From Candidatus Nanoarchaeia archaeon (GTDB lineage: Archaea > Nanobdellota > Nanobdellia > Pacearchaeales > GW2011-AR1): DNA of 64,000 bases. Below the pieces are notes generated by a model that worked only from the letters and a program-made list of their open reading frames with translations, had not been told where the DNA came from and did not search any database. Positions 5,931-17,904 of the stretch are shown piece after piece. Within the stretch, counting starts at the first letter, position 1. Every line of letters starts with the position of its first letter. A program made the translations under genes and the position numbers. The DNA lies in the NCBI GenBank assembly GCA_035548435.1, contig DASZSY010000003.1, forward strand, positions 5,311-69,310. The letters run 5' to 3'.

Positions 5931-6248
5931 TTACTTGATATTTTGCCTAGATTCTTCAAAATCTGAATAATTTTGTAATATTTCTTCATCTTTCTTTATA
6001 TCTCTTAAAGCAACAAGATTTTCATTAAGCAAACCAATGTTTGGATTAGTTGAATGATTACAATACCTTATATCATCATGAGCTAAGTGCCATTTTCCAA
6101 GTTTTTTATCAAAGTATCCATAGTGTTTTATAATTTCCTTTTCACTTTCATTTAACTCATTGAACTGCTTTTCAGTCAATAATAAATCAAGTTTAATATT
6201 TGGACAATATATTTTCGTTCCTTTCTTTATATTTTCAGAAGCAAACAA
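5931..6248 (-). CDS. Small SET-domain-like protein
   Basis: FASENIKKGTKIY (SET N-region), RYCNHSTNPNI (NHSxxPN core) and EEILQNY (GEEL.Y-like) in 105 aa. Comparable to minimal viral/archaeal SET proteins. Confidence 0.4.
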   Translation of the reverse strand: MFASENIKKGTKIYCPNIKLDLLLTEKQFNELNESEKEIIKHYGYFDKKLGKWHLAHDDIRYCNHSTNPNIGLLNENLVALRDIKKDEEILQNYSDFEESRQNIK

Positions 6249-6301
6249 TCCAATTCCATGAACTTTACTTTTATCTAAATGTATTTGTATAAAAAAAATA
6301 T

Positions 6302-6592
6302 TTATGCTACTTTAGCCAATTGCTCTCTGTCTTGAAGTAGTGCAATTAAAGTACCTTCCATTCCCGATATGCTTCTCCAAGCTGCTTCCATCTCTTCAGG
6401 TTCTGCTTTCTTACCAGTTTTTCTATAATTGTTAATAAATTTTCTCAATCCAGATCCCTCACCCATATACATAGTATCGAATCCATCTCTGCTTAATTCA
6501 TCCAAATCTCCTCTGATTACATGATATTCTTTAGATAAAAATTGATAAAGAAAATCAAGAACAGCAAAGTCACGTATATTTTGATAATCCAT
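6302..6592 (-). CDS. Hypothetical protein, co-oriented with ribosomal protein genes
   Basis: 96-aa ORF upstream of S3Ae and L44e; family not recognised. Confidence 0.3.
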   Translation of the reverse strand: MDYQNIRDFAVLDFLYQFLSKEYHVIRGDLDELSRDGFDTMYMGEGSGLRKFINNYRKTGKKAEPEEMEAAWRSISGMEGTLIALLQDREQLAKVA

Positions 6593-6611: not shown

Positions 6612-7169
6612 TTACTTAAGAAGTTGTGCTGGAGCCTTCACAGATTCAAGAACTCTTATTTCACAGAATGCTAAAGGGTATATCTTCTTTAGTTTTAGTG
6701 AAAGTTCTTTCTGAAGCTTGTTTGTCATCATATCTGAGAATATTTCTTGCAAAGTTCTTATTCTTACATATCCTTGTAAAAATTCTCTTGCTGTGTCTCT
6801 TAGAGAAGCTCTAACAGTTCTTGAAACTCTGTTTCTTGTTATCATAAATGGTTTTACTATAACTGTTCCATCCTTTGAATCAGTTGAGAATGAATCTTCA
6901 ACGTAATCTGTTCCTTTTCTCATGCTTCTTCTTATGAAAGAGCCTGCAAGAGCCATTCTTGATGGAACTCCATTTAGCTTATCTCCTTCTTTCTTTAAGT
7001 TCAATGTAACTTCGAAACTCTTTCCCCTTAGAGATCTTGTCATATCAAGTTTGATTGTTTTACCATCAAACTCTTCTAAATCAGTTCCATAAACATGTAG
7101 CTTTGCAGAAGTTATAGGAGCATTAACCTCAAAAAATCCTTTCTTTATTCCTTTCTTTGCTGTTGCCAT
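6612..7169 (-). CDS. rps3ae: 30S ribosomal protein S3Ae
   Basis: FEVNAPI...GKSFEVTLNL...KIYPL...IRVLE pattern matches archaeal S3Ae. Confidence 0.75.
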   Translation of the reverse strand: MATAKKGIKKGFFEVNAPITSAKLHVYGTDLEEFDGKTIKLDMTRSLRGKSFEVTLNLKKEGDKLNGVPSRMALAGSFIRRSMRKGTDYVEDSFSTDSKDGTVIVKPFMITRNRVSRTVRASLRDTAREFLQGYVRIRTLQEIFSDMMTNKLQKELSLKLKKIYPLAFCEIRVLESVKAPAQLLK

Positions 7170-7170
7170 T

Positions 7171-7533
7171 TTACTTTGCTATTTTCTCCCCTATTTCAAT
7201 TCTTGAGCTTCTTATAGCTTTTTTGATTCCCTTCATCTTGTTACACTTTTTACACTTGTACATAACTGTGATTCTCTTTGTAACTTTGGTTTTTCTCTTC
7301 CATGACTTTACAGCAGGTTTAGAATACTTTCCTTTGTTTCCGTATCCAGAACGCATTCCTCTTGCTTTTAATCTTGAAGTTGATCCACGAGATAATGGGT
7401 GAGTAGCGGAACGAGATCTTTGCTTTGCTGTTGTAACTAATTGAACTGTATGTTCTTTACATGTTGGACAATATCTTTTTGTTTCCTTTGGTAGTTTCAT
7501 GTTCCACTGGTCTATTGAAGAAGCTAACCTCAC
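7171..7533 (-). CDS. rpl44e: 50S ribosomal protein L44e
   Basis: KRYCPTCKEHTVQ ... GYGNKGKYSKP ... YKCKKCNK zinc-binding pattern of L44e. Confidence 0.8.
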   Translation of the reverse strand: MRLASSIDQWNMKLPKETKRYCPTCKEHTVQLVTTAKQRSRSATHPLSRGSTSRLKARGMRSGYGNKGKYSKPAVKSWKRKTKVTKRITVMYKCKKCNKMKGIKKAIRSSRIEIGEKIAK

Positions 7534-8012: not shown

Positions 8013-9329
8013 ATGCGTCAAGCAATAAAAGATTTGGTGATAAATTTTAATTCAAGTATTGCTGGAAAAAAACTTAGAATAATAAGTCATTTTGATACCG
8101 ATGGAATAACTTCTGCAGCAATAATGGCCAGAGCGTTGCAAAGAGCAGGAATTGTTTACACTCTAGATATTGTAAAAGGTCTTGAAGAAAGTTATATTCA
8201 AAAATTACCAGAAGACGAAATATTATTTTTCACTGACCTTGCTTCAGGAAGTCTTAACTATCTAGCAAATAAACCAAATAAAGTTTTTATTTTAGACCAT
8301 CACGAAATTGCTCAAAAAATTCCAAGCAATGTAACTATGGTAAACCCCCTTCTTTTCGACCATGAACAAATCTCTGGAGCGGGACTATGTTATTTATTTG
8401 CAAAAGAGCTATCTCTAAACAACAAGGATCTTGCAAAATTAGCAGTAATAGGGATGGTGGGAGATATGATGGACAAAGAAATAAACAAAGTATATAGTGA
8501 AATAATTCAAGATTCAGAAGTTGAAGTAAGAAAGGGTCTTCTACTTTATCCTTCCACTCGTCCTCTAGACAGGGCCCTTGAATATGCTTCAGGATTCTAT
8601 ATTCCTGGAGTCACTGGTTCATATAAAGGAGTTTTAGAGCTTCTAAGAGACGCAGGACTTGAAAAGAAAGATAATATGTTCAAAAGTTTGTATGAACTAA
8701 CAGAAGAAGAAATGTCTCGTCTAGTAACGGCAATAATGCTTCGTGTAGAAGATGAAAAATCAATGGAAAAAATGATTGGTAATCTGTATATAATCAATTT
8801 TCTTAATAAAAAAGAAGATGCAAGAGAAATTTCTGCGTTGATTAACGCCTGCAGTAGAATAGGTCGCTCTGATGTTGCGCTTGGATTCTGTCTTTCCAAC
8901 AAACAATACAGAGAGCAAGCTGAAAAAATATACATTGAGTATAAACAACATCTTGTTTCAGCTTTAAGATATGTTGAAGGCACTGAAAAAATAGCTGGAA
9001 AAAACTATGCTATAATTAATGCCAAAGATAACATAAAAGATACCATAATTGGAACTGTAACCTCTATAATTTCACATTCTCCTGTTTATACAACGGGTAC
9101 AATGATTATAGGTCTTGCATATAATGAAGACAAAATAAAAGTTTCAGCCAGAATAGCTGGAAGAGAAGGCAAAAACGTACGCGAAATATTATCTCAAGTT
9201 GTTGTTCCGTTAGGTGGAGAAGTCGGAGGACACCCAAATGCTGCCGGCTGCCTAATAAGTAAAGCCCATGAAGAGAAATTTATATCAGAATTACGCAGGG
9301 TTTTGGACATTGAGTTGCTAAAGGTTTAA
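8013..9329 (+). CDS. RecJ-like DHH-family phosphoesterase (archaeal GAN/RecJ-Cdc45 homologue)
   Basis: DHH motifs ISHFDTDGITSA and LDHHEI; GGHPNAAG near the C-terminus. Confidence 0.7.
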   Translation: MRQAIKDLVINFNSSIAGKKLRIISHFDTDGITSAAIMARALQRAGIVYTLDIVKGLEESYIQKLPEDEILFFTDLASGSLNYLANKPNKVFILDHHEIAQKIPSNVTMVNPLLFDHEQISGAGLCYLFAKELSLNNKDLAKLAVIGMVGDMMDKEINKVYSEIIQDSEVEVRKGLLLYPSTRPLDRALEYASGFYIPGVTGSYKGVLELLRDAGLEKKDNMFKSLYELTEEEMSRLVTAIMLRVEDEKSMEKMIGNLYIINFLNKKEDAREISALINACSRIGRSDVALGFCLSNKQYREQAEKIYIEYKQHLVSALRYVEGTEKIAGKNYAIINAKDNIKDTIIGTVTSIISHSPVYTTGTMIIGLAYNEDKIKVSARIAGREGKNVREILSQVVVPLGGEVGGHPNAAGCLISKAHEEKFISELRRVLDIELLKV

Positions 9330-10377: not shown

Positions 10378-10953
10378 CTAATGCAAGTTAGTTTCTTTCT
10401 TAACTATTTCCATGTCTTTTTCCCAGAGAGGAATTAATTTTCTATTGTATATTATAGCTGCTGGATGAAATAAAGGAATCAATTTTATTTTCATTCCTTC
10501 GAATTCAATAAATCTTACTTTTCCATGCAATTCTGTAATTCCTGGTTGCTCATTCATCTTATCAGGTTCAAATCCAGACAAAAAGAATTTTGTTGAATAA
10601 TTCCCTAAGCTACAAACCACTTCAGGCTTCATTTCCCTTATTTGCTGTATAAGCCAAGGAGTATGCATTTTAATTTCATCAGTTGTGGGATTCCTATTCT
10701 CTGGAGGTCTACATTTGAGTATGTTAGCAATGTAAATATCATTTGTAGTAAGTCCAACGTTTGCAAGTAATTTATCTAAGTTTTTTCCTGCAGCACCAAC
10801 AAAAGGCAAACCCTGCTCATCTTCATTTCTTCCAGGAGCTTCTCCAACAAAAAGTATTTTTGAGTTTATGTTTCCCCTCCCAATAACAATATTTTTACAG
10901 TTTTTAAAAATCTCAGTTTGTTTAACTTTCTGTATATAATCTAGTTCTTCCAT
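10378..10953 (-). CDS. udg: Uracil-DNA glycosylase, family 4
   Basis: GEAPGRNEDEQGLPFVGAAG and LKCRPPENRNPT motifs. Confidence 0.85.
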   Translation of the reverse strand: MEELDYIQKVKQTEIFKNCKNIVIGRGNINSKILFVGEAPGRNEDEQGLPFVGAAGKNLDKLLANVGLTTNDIYIANILKCRPPENRNPTTDEIKMHTPWLIQQIREMKPEVVCSLGNYSTKFFLSGFEPDKMNEQPGITELHGKVRFIEFEGMKIKLIPLFHPAAIIYNRKLIPLWEKDMEIVKKETNLH

Positions 10954-11527: not shown

Positions 11528-12097
11528 ATGGTAGTAGAACAAACACTCGTGCTTTTGAAGCCAGATACAGTTCAAAGAAATTTAATTGGAAAAATAATTA
11601 CAAGATTTGAAGATGCCGGACTTAAGATTGCAGCAATGAAAATGGTTTGGGCCGATGAAAATATGGCAAAGAAACATTATCATCTAGATGAAACCTGGGC
11701 AAAAAACGTTTTCGACAAAACAAAAGCAGGATATGACAAGGAAGGAAAAAAGATGCCCTATAAAGATCACCTTGAACTCGGAAAAACAATTCAATCCTGG
11801 AATATGGATTTACTTCGTTCAGGTCCAATTATTGCTTTAGTCTTCGAAGGACCACATGCAGTTGAAGTCACAAGAAAAATGGTTGGCTCAACAGAACCTC
11901 GTCAGGCAGCTCCCGGAACAATTCGTGGGGACTTTGCAACACTTGAATCCTATGCTCTAGCAGATGTAAAGAAAAGAGTTCTTAGAAATTTAATTCACGC
12001 TTCAGACACTCCAGACAACGCAAAAAGAGAAATTTCCCTTTGGTTCTCTCCTGCAGAAGTACACAACTACAAGAAAGACTTAGACAAACACTTCTAA
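11528..12097 (+). CDS. ndk: Nucleoside diphosphate kinase with approx 35-aa insertion
   Basis: LVLLKPD ... NLIHASD catalytic His motif; 189 aa versus the usual approx 150. Confidence 0.85.
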   Translation: MVVEQTLVLLKPDTVQRNLIGKIITRFEDAGLKIAAMKMVWADENMAKKHYHLDETWAKNVFDKTKAGYDKEGKKMPYKDHLELGKTIQSWNMDLLRSGPIIALVFEGPHAVEVTRKMVGSTEPRQAAPGTIRGDFATLESYALADVKKRVLRNLIHASDTPDNAKREISLWFSPAEVHNYKKDLDKHF

Positions 12098-12867: not shown

Positions 12868-12941
12868 GCCCCCATAGTTTAGCCTGGATAGAACGAGACC
12901 TTGCGGAGGTCTTAACCGAGGTTCAAATCCTCGTGGGGGCG
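12868..12941 (+). tRNA. tRNA-Arg (anticodon GCG)
   Basis: Acceptor GCCCCCA/TGGGGGC, D-stem GTTT/GAAC, anticodon stem AGACC/GGTCT with loop TTGCGGA, T-arm CGAGG-TTCAAAT-CCTCG, discriminator G. Confidence 0.85.
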
Positions 12942-12942
12942 T

Positions 12943-13476
12943 TTAATTATTTATTTTCTTTTGTAAATAAGGAGAAAAGTATTTTCTGTATTTATTTTGT
13001 AATTCAGGCATTTTCCAGTCAGTAGGTCTAACAAACTTTCTACAATTTCCACTTCCACAATTACATTCAAAGTCATTTAAATGGTCGCCTTGGATAATCA
13101 AAGACTCACAAAAAGCATAATCAAAAGTAAGTTCCTCACCTTCTTTTATGTCTCTTATTGCAACCAATTTAATAGAACCATCAAAACCACAATTAGGTTC
13201 GCAAGAGTGATTAAAGACTCCTTTTTCTTCTAATTCCTTTCTGGATGTTGGTACAATAAAAAAATCTTCATCGAATTGTATGCCGACATGCCCCATAATC
13301 TTCCAGTATTTTTGTATATCATTTGCTGAGATAACAACTCCTCCCAAAACACCTACATTTTCTCCTTTTGAAATATTTTGTATTGCAATAACTCCAAGTC
13401 CTTCTATTGAAGAATTATATGCCTTTGCTTTTGAGGTTAGCCATCTATGGGTATACTTAGAATGCAAATCTTCCAT
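12943..13476 (-). CDS. SET-domain protein lysine methyltransferase with Cys-rich post-SET
   Basis: NHSCEPNC, GEELTFDY and post-SET CNCGSGNCRK motifs. Confidence 0.75.
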   Translation of the reverse strand: MEDLHSKYTHRWLTSKAKAYNSSIEGLGVIAIQNISKGENVGVLGGVVISANDIQKYWKIMGHVGIQFDEDFFIVPTSRKELEEKGVFNHSCEPNCGFDGSIKLVAIRDIKEGEELTFDYAFCESLIIQGDHLNDFECNCGSGNCRKFVRPTDWKMPELQNKYRKYFSPYLQKKINN

Positions 13477-13511
13477 AAACTTATACCCTGAAAGAACTTA
13501 AAAATATTTGC

Positions 13512-14072
13512 TTACTCAAAAACGCTTTTCACTTGCAGAAAACCATTTTTCCCTGCTTTGTTATTAATGTATTTAGTAAATTCAAAATCATCCTTATCGC
13601 ATGAAATTATTATTAGAGAGTTATCTCCAACCGGGAAAACAAAAGGATTTCCATCTCCCTTTGTAAAAACTGCTTGTCCTCCCCAGCTTGAATCCCATTT
13701 CTTTGCACTGTGATAAACAGCAACTATTCTTTTGTTTTGCTTGGCTTCATCATGTATCAGTGTAAAGTCTCTGTGTCCATATAGCCTATTTGCTCTTTCA
13801 ATTAACTTAATTTTTTTACCAGAAATCATCTCAACAAATTCTTGAAATTCTCTGCTTGATAAGAAAGTATCTCCATCTAAGGATTTATAAGAAAATAAAT
13901 CTGCTCTAAATAATTTTTTTCCTTTCTTTTTTGCAAAATGAAGCATTTGACTGTGTGCAGTTTTATCTAAAAAGTCTCCTAAAACTAAAATTCCGCCTTG
14001 CATTTTGAAAACAGAGGCCATTTCTTTCATAGTCTTTGGATTTCTATAAAGAGAATTTATCATTTTAGCCAT
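13512..14072 (-). CDS. Hypothetical protein
   Basis: 186-aa ORF between the SET and 2OG-oxygenase genes, overlapping the latter by 13 nt; no confident motif. Confidence 0.3.
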   Translation of the reverse strand: MAKMINSLYRNPKTMKEMASVFKMQGGILVLGDFLDKTAHSQMLHFAKKKGKKLFRADLFSYKSLDGDTFLSSREFQEFVEMISGKKIKLIERANRLYGHRDFTLIHDEAKQNKRIVAVYHSAKKWDSSWGGQAVFTKGDGNPFVFPVGDNSLIIISCDKDDFEFTKYINNKAGKNGFLQVKSVFE

Positions 14073-14656
14073 CCTCCAATAGCATATCTATCTTTCTTAC
14101 CTATAACTTCATCTACAGAATGCCAACTCTTGTTGCTTACAGCAAACATTGCTAAACTATTCCATTTAGGAGAATATTTTTTAACTGGCTTTCCAGGTTT
14201 TCCATTATCATCATCAAAAATGACTAATGCTCCCCCTTCTTTTTCTTTGAAATCATCACTTAAATAAAGAATATATGCAATTTTTCTGTCTTCAACTTTA
14301 TCATCGTGACAAAGAAGATAATTCGTATCTTTATACAAACTTCCAGCAAAATCAAGTACTCCAGGTTTAACATTAAGGCCTGAAACATCTTTCATAAAAT
14401 CAGCAAATTCTTTTGAAACAACAAAAGAGTGCATTTCTTTCAAGTCCTTATTTTTTGTTTGGGCTAAATCTGAAGTTTGCCAAAGATGGAACAAGTCCGA
14501 ATCTTTTTCTTTAAATTCTTCTTTTCTTATTGCCTTGGCAAGTCTCTGTGCATCTTTCTCATCTAAAAAATTCTCAATAACTAAATGAGGATAAGGCCTT
14601 GCTTCAGTAAATTTCTTATTTAGCTTCTTAGTATCGTGCTTAGATATGTCAAACAT
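14060..14656 (-). CDS. 2OG-Fe(II) oxygenase (prolyl-4-hydroxylase-like)
   Basis: PYPHLVIENFLDE N-terminal signature; CHDDKVEDRKIAYILYLS (H-x-D), later WHSVDEV (distal His) and RYAIGGWL (2OG-binding Arg). Confidence 0.65.
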   Translation of the reverse strand: MFDISKHDTKKLNKKFTEARPYPHLVIENFLDEKDAQRLAKAIRKEEFKEKDSDLFHLWQTSDLAQTKNKDLKEMHSFVVSKEFADFMKDVSGLNVKPGVLDFAGSLYKDTNYLLCHDDKVEDRKIAYILYLSDDFKEKEGGALVIFDDDNGKPGKPVKKYSPKWNSLAMFAVSNKSWHSVDEVIGKKDRYAIGGWLK

Positions 14657-14711
14657 TAAAGATATAGTAAAAAAGACGTTTTAAATATTGCTTCCTTAAA
14701 AGAAAGACAAA

Positions 14712-15401
14712 CTAATTATTTTCAACCAATTTAGTTTCATACCAAAACTCATATAACGGCCCAATGAGCATTCCTGTTAAAAAATACCAAATCATATCAT
14801 CTAAAGGCATATTTAAGAAAATAAAATTAGGAACATTAGTAAAATGCCAAAATTCTTCGACCCATCCAGGAGTTATAAGCTCAAGTAAACTATAAACAAT
14901 AAAAGCTATAAAAAGCATCAAGAACCCGGAAACGATTGAGTCTATTATCAAATCCTTACGTTTTAAATATATAATTAATGTTGGTACCGATAGAGTAATT
15001 ATTGTTGCAATAAAACTATTCAAATTAAAAAAATAAAAAGTGCCAAAAAATAAAAAAAGCATTAAAAGGGTTATCTTAAGTTCTTTAGCAAAAACTTTTT
15101 CCTTATTTACATTTTTTCTCTTTCTAATTCTCTTCTTAAACAAATCTTCATAGATAACTGTAGCAATTCCAGCAATGCAAAATCCAACTATAAAAGCTTC
15201 GAAACCTATACGTGTATTAGTTAAAGTCAGTGGACTCCACCAGTCTTGAGTATACAATATATCTGCTCCAACTCCTGCGAAACCAAAAATAAAAGATATA
15301 GAAATCATTTGTTTACGAGTATCTTCACGCCACAAATAAAGAATAAGCCAGATAATTAAAAAAATTAGACCCATGTAAGCATAGGTATACTGATAACTCA
15401 T
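14712..15401 (-). CDS. Hypothetical polytopic membrane protein
   Basis: About 7 TM helices; no motif. Confidence 0.3.
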   Translation of the reverse strand: MSYQYTYAYMGLIFLIIWLILYLWREDTRKQMISISFIFGFAGVGADILYTQDWWSPLTLTNTRIGFEAFIVGFCIAGIATVIYEDLFKKRIRKRKNVNKEKVFAKELKITLLMLFLFFGTFYFFNLNSFIATIITLSVPTLIIYLKRKDLIIDSIVSGFLMLFIAFIVYSLLELITPGWVEEFWHFTNVPNFIFLNMPLDDMIWYFLTGMLIGPLYEFWYETKLVENN

Positions 15402-15431: not shown

Positions 15432-16436
15432 TTACTCTTCTTCGTCTTTTACACCCTTAGTTGTAACATAGAACACAGTTTCATTGTCCGGTAAGTTTGG
15501 ACTATCTATTAATTTTGCAACTCTGCTTCCCTGTTTTCCACGTCTTAGATATATTCTATATGTACTTGCGTGTCCAACTATATTTCCACCAATAGCTGTT
15601 GTTGGATCTCCAAACATCATTGCAGGGTTTGCCATAACTTGATTTGTAAGATATATTGCAATATTGTGTTGCTCAGCAAGTCTCATTAATTGGTGTAAAT
15701 ATCTGTTAAGTTTATGCTGTCTGTCTGCAAGTTGTCCACGTCCAGCGAACTCAGCTCTAAAGTGTGCTGTCAAAGAGTCTATAATTACAAGTTTTATTGG
15801 TTGTCCATCTTTTATAAGTTCAGTAACCTTATCAACCAAAAGCATTTGATGGTCTGAATTAAATGCTCTTGCAACAAATATGTTTTTCAAAACTTTTTCA
15901 GGAACCGCTCCAACTCCTTCAGCTATCTGTCTTATTCTCTCAGGTCTAAATGTTCCTTCAGTATCTATGTAAACTGCCTTTCCATCCAACCCGCCTTGCT
16001 CTTTAGGCAATTGAACATTCACAGCCAATGTTAGTCCTAACTGTGTCTTTCCACTTCCAAAAGCTCCATAACATTCAGTTATTGCCTTTGTTTCTACTCC
16101 CTTTCCACCCAGAAGATTATTGAAATTTGAGCTTCCTGTAGTTATATGTCCCACATCTTCTCTTTTTTTAGCGAATTCAATTCCATCTGTGAAACCAAGT
16201 TTCATCAAATTTCTAGCAGCCTGTATTGCTTTTCTTGCAACAGCTTCTCCTATTCCAGCCATATCTGAAAGAGCAGCAGGAGACATAACTGCCATTCCCA
16301 TTAAATCATAAACTCCAGCAGCTTCTAATTTTGCAGCAATTCCTGGACCAATTCCAGGAATGTCTGTCAAAGAAGGTTCTTTTTCCTTAGAATCTTCAAT
16401 TTTCTCCTCTTTCTCCTCGGAAGATTTTCTGACCAT
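15432..16436 (-). CDS. radA: DNA repair and recombination protein RadA
   Basis: N-terminal HhH region ([16 protein letters not shown]), Walker [11 protein letters not shown], Walker B LVIIDSL. Confidence 0.9.
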
Positions 16437-16971: not shown

Positions 16972-17904
16972 TTAAGCTTGAAGTTCTTTCAGTAAGCTGT
17001 CAAGGTTTACAGGTTCAATGCTATCTATTGAAAATTCCAAATTGTTGAAAAGTTGATTCATTTTTAATGTTCCTGAGAAATAAAGTTCTTCTCCAAGTAA
17101 TTCCTGTTTCTTAACATGAAAAGCTTCAAGAGAAAATAATTCTGCTTCTGAGACTCCAAATGCATATAATTCCTTGTCAGACAACAATGCCCTTGTGGTT
17201 TCAGTTCCATCATCAATCACTATATTTAGCAAGGCTCTTCTAACCGGTTGTATTTTTCCATGAACTGCACACTCTCCATCTATTGCCTTTTTTCTGCATT
17301 CTGGGCAAACTTCAAAATATCTTGGATCAAAAACCTGTACAATAACTGCTCTTGTTCTTATTCTATCTCCCTGTTTAGCATCCTTTAGCTCCTTCTGCTG
17401 TGTTGTCGGCTTTGTTGTAACCACCTGATCAATTGTATTTTTACTTAACTTTACATCAGAAAATGAAGAAAGATGTAGCTCTCCATTTCTAACACTTGCC
17501 CTGGATACTTCTAAAACATCTCCCTGCTTTATTTTATTCTGTTCTATTAAAGCAATGTGATTAACATCCCAGAAAACTGTTTTGACAGTTCCAGATTCAT
17601 CACCTAAAATCATATTTGCCACCTTTCCACTTCTTCCATTTTTCTCGTAACTTCTAACAGGATAAAGTGCAACAATTTTTCCTATAACACTTGCTTTTTT
17701 CATTCCTTCAATTAATTCAGCAACTTTCATTTTTTCTTCTTCAAAATTAATTCCAAGTTCTGCTGCAACTATCTGTGCAGCTCCTTCTTTAGAAACAAGT
17801 CCTGAAAGCTTGGCTCTTTTAGCTTCAACCTTTCTAGATACTTCATCTTTAGTAATTCCTGCCTGTTGTGAAACACGTTCAATTAACCTCTCATAATTAT
17901 CCAT
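16972..17904 (-). CDS. rpa: Replication protein A (ssDNA-binding, OB-fold + zinc finger)
   Basis: OB-fold segment (VANMILGDESGTVKTVFWD) and C4-type element CPECRKK...C..HGK. Confidence 0.7.
   Translation of the reverse strand: MDNYERLIERVSQQAGITKDEVSRKVEAKRAKLSGLVSKEGAAQIVAAELGINFEEEKMKVAELIEGMKKASVIGKIVALYPVRSYEKNGRSGKVANMILGDESGTVKTVFWDVNHIALIEQNKIKQGDVLEVSRASVRNGELHLSSFSDVKLSKNTIDQVVTTKPTTQQKELKDAKQGDRIRTRAVIVQVFDPRYFEVCPECRKKAIDGECAVHGKIQPVRRALLNIVIDDGTETTRALLSDKELYAFGVSEAELFSLEAFHVKKQELLGEELYFSGTLKMNQLFNNLEFSIDSIEPVNLDSLLKELQA

Follow-up and report, generated by a model that had tools for sequence, protein, structure and literature searches.

The 64,000-nucleotide stretch of Candidatus Nanoarchaeia archaeon DNA analyzed here (GenBank assembly GCA_035548435.1, contig DASZSY010000003.1, positions 5,311 to 69,310 of the forward strand; hereafter the window, GC ~32%) encodes a split, archaeal version of the OGFOD1/Tpa1 prolyl hydroxylase. 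Two overlapping minus strand genes correspond to the two domains of this eukaryotic enzyme of ribosomal protein uS12 (RPS23); the first is called the N-terminal domain (NTD) gene and the second the C-terminal domain (CTD) gene. The pair is most likely a two-subunit prolyl hydroxylase of uS12, a function suggested by homology, by adjacency to uS12-uS7 in four genomes, and by a conserved target motif. A 177-residue SET domain protein (SET177) encoded directly 3' of the pair would be separate from it, and a smaller SET protein (mini-SET) a third, unrelated unit. The explanation as a whole, a coupled OGFOD1-like pair hydroxylating uS12 with two independent SET genes, is assigned a probability of roughly 0.55. 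The features of the pair are as follows.

14060-14656, minus strand: NTD gene, 2-oxoglutarate (2OG)-Fe(II) oxygenase, 198 residues (Pfam, PDB search, AlphaFold2 model, Foldseek)
13512-14063, minus strand: CTD gene, non-catalytic double-stranded beta-helix, 183 residues (Pfam, PDB search, AlphaFold2 model, Foldseek, hhalign)
14060-14072, minus strand: NTD/CTD stop/start overlap, ATGGCTAAAATGA (sequence)
14680-14686, minus strand: TATA-like ATTTAAA, 24-30 nt 5' of the NTD start codon (offset peak in the window)

Two genes for the two domains of OGFOD1

The Pfam, PDB and Foldseek matches identify the two genes as the two domains of the eukaryotic uS12 prolyl 3-hydroxylase, and it is close to certain that NTD and CTD are the respective orthologs of the N- and C-terminal domains of OGFOD1/Tpa1/Ofd1, collinear and conserved as a pair but encoded by two genes. 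The initial annotation, made from the sequence alone, had already recognized a prolyl-hydroxylase-like 2OG-Fe(II) oxygenase in the first gene. This assignment is upheld by matches above the curated Pfam thresholds to PF13661 (E 1.3e-29) and PF13640 (E 1.2e-17), and the best solved relatives in a PDB sequence search are the N-terminal catalytic domains of OGFOD1 (9.9e-29) and yeast Tpa1 (1.8e-15). The AlphaFold2 model of NTD (pLDDT 95.0) finds as its top PDB matches in Foldseek OGFOD1 (TMq 0.90, 29-30% identity) and Tpa1 (TMq 0.88-0.91), whereas other families reach at most 0.79 (PasI 0.77-0.79; PolD, bacterial prolyl 4-hydroxylase (P4H) and PHD2 ~0.70), and the 50 Foldseek matches listed for NTD include no structure of the AlkB family. 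The Fe ligands H117, D119 and H179 and the 2OG-binding R190 align to H155, D157, H218 and R230 of OGFOD1 (PDB chain numbering minus a 20-residue tag), and all four are invariant in 28 NTD homologs. In total 92 homologs were found, nearly all ~200 residues long and named in some sources as generic 2OG oxygenases or "Tpa1-like". Identity with the cyclophane-peptide oxygenase YhhC was rejected on a score of 47.9 bits against the equivalog cut-off of 150 (NCBIfam NF041706). Two deviant relatives were seen: L013:4643-5251 has LLCQDD instead of LLCHDD, the first Fe ligand being Gln, and L033:1850-2412 is a truncated pair consisting of a 65-residue NTD remnant and a 114-residue CTD remnant.

The gene between the oxygenase and SET177, left uninterpreted by the initial annotation, is an Ofd1_CTDD-like gene (PF10637, E 4.8e-9, 36.5 bits against a gathering cut-off of 27). 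The only significant PDB sequence match of its product is the C-terminal half of human OGFOD1 (chain residues 465-540). The AlphaFold2 model (pLDDT 96.7) retrieves from the PDB, by Foldseek, OGFOD1 (TMq 0.88), the isolated S. pombe Ofd1 CTD (6e0t, 0.79) and Tpa1 (0.74-0.76) at the top, compared to up to 0.73 for PHD2 and ~0.6-0.7 for the rest. An hhalign profile-profile alignment of CTD with NTD reaches significance from end to end (99.3%, E 1.5e-20), which makes the two ancient paralogs. In CTD, Thr or Val takes the place of the distal His and Gly that of the 2OG Arg, and the "HxD" motif is freely variable at its third position; judged from these residues, the catalytic tetrad is intact in the first gene only. 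The eukaryotic CTD likewise has no metal-binding site (Horita et al., PMC4396695). CTD comprises 183 residues from the ATGA start, which is the depositor's gene call, or 186 from the start at 14072, and CTD genes carry the name "hypothetical protein" in the source annotation.

The break between the genes falls at the domain boundary of the eukaryotic enzymes: NTD ends in …GGWLK before its stop codon (…SGWFHG in eukaryotes) and CTD begins MINSLY… (…WINPxYL… in eukaryotes). The oxygenase and both SET genes are present on the minus strand at the coordinates that the initial annotation gave, but it placed the oxygenase gene downstream of SET177; in the direction of transcription this gene lies upstream. 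The 13-nt overlap that was reported exists, but it lies between the oxygenase and the intervening gene, with the start at 14072, and is only 4 nt (ATGA) with the second ATG.

Conservation and predicted expression of the pair

Stand-alone CTDs directly 3' of a 198-residue NTD gene were found three more times in a word-indexed search (75%, 67% and 46% identity), and a HMMER scan of 1.84 billion cluster representatives with a CTD profile gave 656 matches. The best 150 of these are almost all stand-alone proteins of 170-220 residues; a handful are fused, among them the C-terminal halves of Rozella and fish proteins, both from eukaryotes. GTDB species-representative genomes scanned with a 12-sequence CTD alignment yielded 31 loci, titled Woesearchaeota, Pacearchaeota and Nanoarchaeota, five being titled "uncultured Methanosarcinales". 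NTD lies immediately 5' of CTD on the same strand in 31/31 of these genomes and in 3/3 close relatives. The CTD start codon overlaps the 3' end or stop of NTD by 1-14 nt (TAATG, ATGA and similar) in 25 of 33 loci, which indicates probable translational coupling of the two genes.

The junction types differ among lineages, with overlaps of 1, 4, 8, 11 and 14 nt and some short gaps, and CTD always begins at a conserved M-I-N-x-x-Y motif with its own start codon. These observations dispose of the idea that the split is an assembly error, a frameshifted and decaying gene, or the product of programmed -1 frameshifting at CUA-AAA-UGA into one fused protein. In favor of such a reading, the two genes overlap and are read in distinct frames, slippage by -1 in the run of A residues ahead of the stop would lead directly into MINSLY…, and fused proteins of 416-428 residues are known elsewhere. 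However, the same split recurs in 34 independent assemblies with varied junctions and both reading frames are full length and conserved, so that this explanation has next to no chance of being correct. Assembly artefact, recent pseudogene and a single programmed frameshift are thus rejected on the variation of the junctions between lineages.

TATA-like hexamers form a sharp peak 27-30 nt 5' of start codons when the 84 called genes of the whole window are considered, with 44 occurrences at these offsets among the 58 genes whose spacer is at least 30 nt. This peak implies, as a prediction from sequence, that mRNAs in the window are predominantly leaderless, with one promoter per unit and with promoter-bearing spacers as short as ~30 nt. 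NTD has its own TATA-like element, present also in 16 of 26 relatives, and CTD has none by the window scan; ATTTAAA at 14680-14686 is the probable promoter of a leaderless bicistronic NTD-CTD transcript. The expected transcripts are this bicistronic mRNA and a separate SET177 mRNA.

Relation to the OGFOD1 subfamily and other hydroxylases

The pair shares with the uS12 prolyl 3-hydroxylases OGFOD1, Tpa1, Ofd1 and Sudestada1 both halves in collinear order: an NTD with HxD…H and Arg at 28-30% identity and TMq ~0.9, and an Ofd1_CTDD-like CTD with TMq up to 0.88. Among the motifs in common, (W/M)INPxYL opens each domain, GGW(F/L)H closes NTD, and HRDYTLLHD and SFVKYVNH lie in CTD. Unlike the eukaryotic enzymes, the halves are encoded here and in 34 related loci by two genes in different frames and not as one polypeptide. 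The pair is without the inter-domain linker (31 residues in OGFOD1, 95 in Tpa1), the acidic loop and the Tpa1 dimerization inserts, and each half is therefore only ~185-200 residues long. Its host is a DPANN archaeon, whereas the OGFOD1 subfamily has been described as "found only in eukaryotes" (Horita et al. 2015, PMC4396695). The DPANN pair thus corresponds to both OGFOD1 domains in sequence and structure, and it departs from the subfamily in not being a single polypeptide and in not being eukaryotic, which is why it is counted as a variant rather than a plain member.

Pseudomonas PPHD and animal PHD2/EGLN belong to the same double-stranded beta-helix prolyl hydroxylase superfamily and have the same catalytic tetrad, and PPHD also acts on a translation protein, EF-Tu; however, they are markedly less similar to NTD (TMq 0.66-0.73, 16-20% identity) and have no Ofd1_CTDD partner. 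Protein modifications by 2OG oxygenases have been described as common in eukaryotes and many prokaryotes "but not archaea" (Markolovic et al. 2015). Full-text literature searches found no paper linking OGFOD1, Tpa1 or prolyl hydroxylases to DPANN, Asgard or Woesearchaeota.

Split and fused forms

The relationship of split to fused forms was examined in a neighbor-joining tree of 39 NTD and 39 CTD sequences, i.e. 31 DPANN pairs and 8 fused proteins cut at GWFHG, among which a eukaryotic source is verified for the Rozella protein only. NTDs and CTDs separate with a bootstrap value of 100/100, fused sequences being nested in each half, so that the duplication is older than the branching of split from fused forms. 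The N subtree and the C subtree have mirrored sub-clades, which indicates that NTD and CTD have been inherited together. CTD evolves faster than NTD in both forms alike (mean identities of 29% vs 44% in DPANN and 45% vs 59% in fused proteins).

In the NTD half the fused forms make up a single clade (96/100). When the halves are used to root each other, DPANN monophyly receives only 14/100 and 2/100, values compatible with an ancestral split followed by fusion as well as with transfer followed by fission. A tentative and rather unlikely view is that the DPANN pair keeps the arrangement from which the eukaryotic ribosomal prolyl hydroxylase arose by fusion: a single-domain prolyl hydroxylase would have been duplicated in tandem, one copy would have lost catalysis and become an obligatory partner subunit, and the partner genes would later have fused in the eukaryotic lineage. 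Hydroxylation of the decoding-center proline of uS12, dependent on O2, Fe and 2OG, would then be an archaeal invention active in Nanoarchaeota today, and not a eukaryotic innovation.

Compact fused OGFOD1-like proteins of 416-428 residues with a short linker also occur on metagenome contigs (P0173, at L042:6001-7281, P0217 and P0240). The contig of P0173 shows dense, prokaryote-like gene packing, with genes for a radical SAM protein, a Na+/H+ exchanger, pyruvate kinase and acyl-CoA dehydrogenase. These three could be prokaryotic fused forms relevant to the question of fusion or fission.

Proposed hydroxylation of uS12 and other possible substrates

The initial annotation had named ribosomal and translation proteins among the possible targets of the oxygenase, and the homology to OGFOD1/Tpa1 lends support to such a target. 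In the proposed mechanism the first gene (14656-14060) would provide the catalytic Fe(II)/2-oxoglutarate oxygenase domain and the second (14063-13512) a paralogous beta-helix protein no longer capable of catalysis; the bicistronic, translationally coupled genes would give equimolar products. NTD and CTD would pair up into a heterodimer resembling the two-domain enzyme, an association suggested by the strict adjacency, the translational coupling and the mirrored phylogenies. In the OGFOD1 subfamily the domains form one globular enzyme, packed against each other by their minor beta-sheets (PDB 4NHX). Using O2 and 2OG, the heterodimer would hydroxylate the conserved uS12 proline (…EAKQ-P-NSA…) at the decoding center and so tune translational accuracy or termination according to O2, Fe or 2OG. 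Hydroxylation of uS12 by such a heterodimer is given about even odds.

The genomic support for uS12 comes from four Woesearchaeota loci in which the order peroxiredoxin, Fe/Mn superoxide dismutase, NTD, CTD is found tail-to-tail with the uS12-uS7 operon.

L016:2973-6741, L018:2923-7878, L033:188-4235 and L034:3903-8376: uS12-adjacent loci

The pair is ~1.0-1.4 kb from uS12 in these loci, and in two of them the CTD stop is 1-5 nt from the uS7 stop. Their uS12 carries EAKQPNSAMRK, a motif that we take to match the human RPS23 sequence. The loop with the candidate target proline reads …VLEKRQIEAKQPNSAMRKAC…. OGFOD1 hydroxylates Pro62 of human uS12, in this loop (PMC4396695). In all four loci the peroxiredoxin (AhpC/TSA) and superoxide dismutase genes are 5' of the pair on the same strand, which shows that these lineages meet O2. 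The loci thus unite an O2-stress context with the putative substrate gene, circumstantial evidence that comes from one sub-clade.

Several points weigh against hydroxylation of uS12. The uS12-uS7 neighborhood is found in only 4 of 35 loci and in convergent orientation, and uS12 is not encoded within the window. Many DPANN archaea are regarded as anaerobes that lack a tricarboxylic acid cycle, which makes the supply of O2 and 2OG uncertain. The Gln ligand of one relative and the degraded pair of another indicate that activity has apparently been lost on occasion and that the function is dispensable in some lineages. Finally, the pair is 3' of RadA in ~40% of the loci, with UDG, a RecJ-like DHH protein and an OB-fold protein around it, a neighborhood that could point to a different role.

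Such a role has been weighed as an OGFOD1-like oxygenase with another substrate, i.e. a DNA/RNA repair or recombination target (AlkB-like dealkylation, or hydroxylation of RadA or RPA) or a translation factor. RadA is directly 5' of the pair on the same strand, at no more than 55 nt in 7 loci, no more than 900 nt in the window and 12 related loci, and 31 nt in a relative from the JGI; UDG, the RecJ-like DHH protein, NDK and an OB-fold/DUF2240 protein are also found repeatedly in the neighborhood. An earlier proposal, cited in PMC6746446, made Tpa1 a repair enzyme of alkylated DNA, and the single-domain bacterial P4H PPHD hydroxylates EF-Tu (PDB 4iw3). However, in sequence and fold NTD and CTD are closest to OGFOD1/Tpa1 and are prolyl-hydroxylase-like, not AlkB-like; NTD is preceded by a promoter-like element even in loci with RadA at a distance of ~30 nt, so that the RadA adjacency may be inherited gene order; and a different sub-clade has the uS12-uS7 adjacency instead. 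Another substrate is considered unlikely, and a heterodimer acting on uS12 is preferred.

A SET domain protein in a variable slot next to the pair

SET177 follows the pair on the same strand and is bounded on its 3' side by a tRNA gene.

12943-13476, minus strand: SET177, SET + post-SET, 177 residues (Pfam PF00856, MLL1 alignment)
13498-13503, minus strand: TATA-like TTTTAA, 22-27 nt 5' of the SET177 start codon, within the 35-nt spacer after the CTD gene
12868-12941, plus strand: tRNA-Arg(GCG), abutting the 3' end of SET177 (ARAGORN)

The identification of the 177-residue protein as SET plus post-SET in the initial annotation was correct, and in a profile hidden Markov model check all three of its domain calls are above the curated Pfam thresholds. 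SET177 scores 56 bits against PF00856 (E 6e-15, cut-off 22.4) and aligns end to end with the SET and post-SET domains of MLL1, including NHSCEPNC, ELTFDY and CxCxxxxC. The GxG motif and the catalytic Tyr motif ELxF/YDY are kept, and the residues of the post-SET Zn cluster (CxCxxxxC plus C92 of NHSC) align with those of MLL1. In 28 family members G28, N89-H90-S91-C92, E115, D119, Y120, C138, C140 and C145 are invariant. SET177 is plausibly an active lysine methyltransferase. The family has its own motifs, N-terminal DLHxxWxHRW and C-terminal DWK…YFSPY, and the window protein has a unique six-residue insert, IIQGDH, before the post-SET motif. SET177 thus resembles the MLL/SET1 modules in GxG, NHSCxPN, ELxFDY, the CxCxxxxC Zn motif and alignment over its whole length, and M. 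mazei Go1-SET in being a small stand-alone SET protein (PMC3980110); it differs from MLL/SET1 and prokaryotic SET proteins in the absence of pre-SET or partner-binding regions, in its family-specific termini and in the insert. Stand-alone SET proteins were already known in archaea and bacteria (PMC3980110).

SET proteins had been called sporadic in archaea by the initial annotation, a description that fits this family poorly, with its more than 550 close relatives of ~170 residues in DPANN and Patescibacteria, the 120 matches listed being ~55-74% identical. The sources are named Nanoarchaeota, Micrarchaeota and Patescibacteria/Parcubacteria, and identity between the DPANN archaea (Nanoarchaeota, Micrarchaeota) and Patescibacteria/Parcubacteria is ~55-66%. 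This implies an apparent exchange of the family by inter-domain transfer among ultra-small symbionts. Composition (GC 0.318 and third-position GC, GC3, 0.213, against window means of 0.332 and 0.226) is not anomalous and being so near the window means gives no sign of recent transfer of SET177. No viral relatives were found by a single-sequence scan, and a scan with the family profile gave 73 viral SET genes; these give no evidence of a viral source, as the best of them is only 38% identical, compared to 55-74% for cellular relatives.

SET177 appears to be an incidental, lineage-specific and separately transcribed neighbor of the pair that fills a variable tRNA-adjacent slot. DNA homology with the related loci L003 and L004 extends as far as the CTD stop codon, breaks off there and sets in again at tRNA-Arg(GCG), the same tRNA being present in both without SET; the slot holds SET177 here, an unrelated 98-residue open reading frame (ORF) in L003 and a 70-residue ORF in L004. 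SET177 is absent beside the pair in 34/34 related loci (the 31 species-representative genomes and the 3 closest relatives). The 31 genome loci and L004 have no SET ORF within ~6 kb of the pair; L003 has a single SET, its mini-SET, at a distance of ~6.6 kb, and the gene table of the JGI relative lists the mini-SET as its only SET. A TATA-like element at the canonical distance precedes SET177 itself, and five other contexts of SET177 homologs have no conserved neighbor and no 2OG oxygenase.

Two other roles were considered for SET177. A secreted or injected effector that methylates host proteins, as do Legionella RomA/LegAS4 and chlamydial SET proteins, would suit a family common to two host-dependent groups (DPANN and Patescibacteria) at ~60% identity and found in variable genomic contexts, as accessory genes are, and bacterial SET effectors are documented (PMC3980110). 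However, no signal peptide or secretion-associated neighbor was seen for SET177 or in the five other contexts, and the strong conservation and the C-terminal DW…YFSPY motif suit a conserved intracellular substrate equally well; an effector is quite improbable.

The initial annotation joined SET177 and the oxygenase in one co-operonic module of protein methylation and hydroxylation, with chromatin or ribosomal/translation proteins as targets. In its favor, SET177 shares the strand of the pair and starts only 35 nt after the CTD stop, both enzyme classes modify proteins, and eukaryotic SET enzymes (PMC4023394) and OGFOD1 (PMC4396695) modify ribosomal proteins; some read-through co-transcription of SET177 with the pair may occur and would count against strictly separate units. 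The module is nevertheless very improbable in view of the 34 related loci that have no SET177 beside the pair, the variable tRNA-adjacent slot, the TATA-like element of SET177 and the homologs elsewhere with no oxygenase neighbor. Nor are oxygenase, SET177 and mini-SET syntenic in the relatives, an outcome that the initial annotation had itself named as telling against its proposal.

The mini-SET and a ribosomal protein cluster

The second SET protein of the window is a minimal SET domain without post-SET, a third unit unrelated to the pair.

5931-6299, minus strand: mini-SET, probably 122 residues with an ATT start (Pfam PF00856, MLL3 alignment)
6302-6592, minus strand: 96-residue ORF (ORF96) without a Pfam match, adjoining the 5' side of mini-SET
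6612-7169, minus strand: S3Ae/eS1 (Pfam)
7171-7533, minus strand: L44e/eL42, start uncertain (Pfam)

The SET domain reported by the initial annotation was confirmed in its 105-residue version (5931-6248; PF00856 E 1.4e-11, 45 bits), but the length was not: the protein probably starts at ATT 6299 and has 122 residues. The 17 codons 5' of the TTG are in frame and conserved, IFFIQIHLDKSKVHGIGLFAS here vs MFFIKIHLDKSKVHGIGLFAS in L003, which has ATG where the window has ATT (6299). The 122-residue version scores 51 bits over Pfam profile positions 1-104 and gains an N-terminal strand and the GxG motif, in an HGIGLF segment, that are missing from the TTG version; the SET core would be complete only if the ORF starts at ATT 6299. 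An alignment with the MLL3 SET domain covers residues 5-119, weakly (E ~6e-3), and a metagenome scan gave only 3 weak matches at 28-29% identity.

Mini-SET is the last gene of an L44e(eL42)-S3Ae(eS1)-ORF96-SET cluster, with spacers of 1 and 19 nt and no canonical TATA-like element. The same cluster is found in L003, and in the more distant JGI relative SET is 2 nt after S3Ae. The yeast SET enzymes Rkm3 and Rkm4/Set13 methylate eL42 (PMC4023394). This cluster, together with the activity of the yeast enzymes, is the reason that mini-SET may, by analogy, be a ribosomal protein methyltransferase. Like Rkm3, Rkm4 and S. pombe Set13 it is a SET domain protein, and its gene clusters with eL42 and eS1 in three related genomes; unlike them it is a bare 122-residue SET core, and the likeness is one of gene neighborhood alone.

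Other genes around the pair

The minus strand order is RadA, Lycopene_cyc membrane protein, oxygenase (NTD), the 183/186-residue gene (CTD), SET177.

15432-16436, minus strand: RadA (Pfam)
14712-15401, minus strand: membrane protein with Lycopene_cyc domain, 229 residues (PF18916, 6.6e-10)

The Lycopene_cyc gene (14712-15401) lies between RadA and NTD in the window and 3' of CTD in the JGI relative, and is a mobile neighbor of the pair without an obvious role in a reduced genome. A neighborhood of an OB-fold/DUF2240 protein, YdjM, RadA, NDK, UDG and a RecJ-like DHH/DHHA1 protein recurs around the pair in DPANN, each in 8-17 of 33 loci; coordinates of such neighborhood genes in the window are 16972-17904, 8013-9329, 10378-10953 and 11528-12097. 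RadA ORFs of ~830-845 residues, compared to ~334 elsewhere, occur at L012:2203-4689, L015:1618-4104, L035:2602-5085 and L013:9280-11814, and their length suggests that these genes contain inteins.

Significance

For annotation, the CTD partner is currently a "hypothetical protein", and the neighboring SET gene invites a false reading as a module. The sharing of the SET177 family at ~60% identity is of secondary interest for inter-domain gene exchange among ultra-small symbionts. The separate halves of the DPANN enzyme constitute a natural experiment on the enigmatic C-terminal domain, since they can be expressed, mixed and mutated apart. A conserved archaeal version would extend ribosomal or translational hydroxylation to Archaea, and it bears on the origin of the eukaryotic enzyme, either by duplication, loss of catalysis and fusion, or by transfer and fission.

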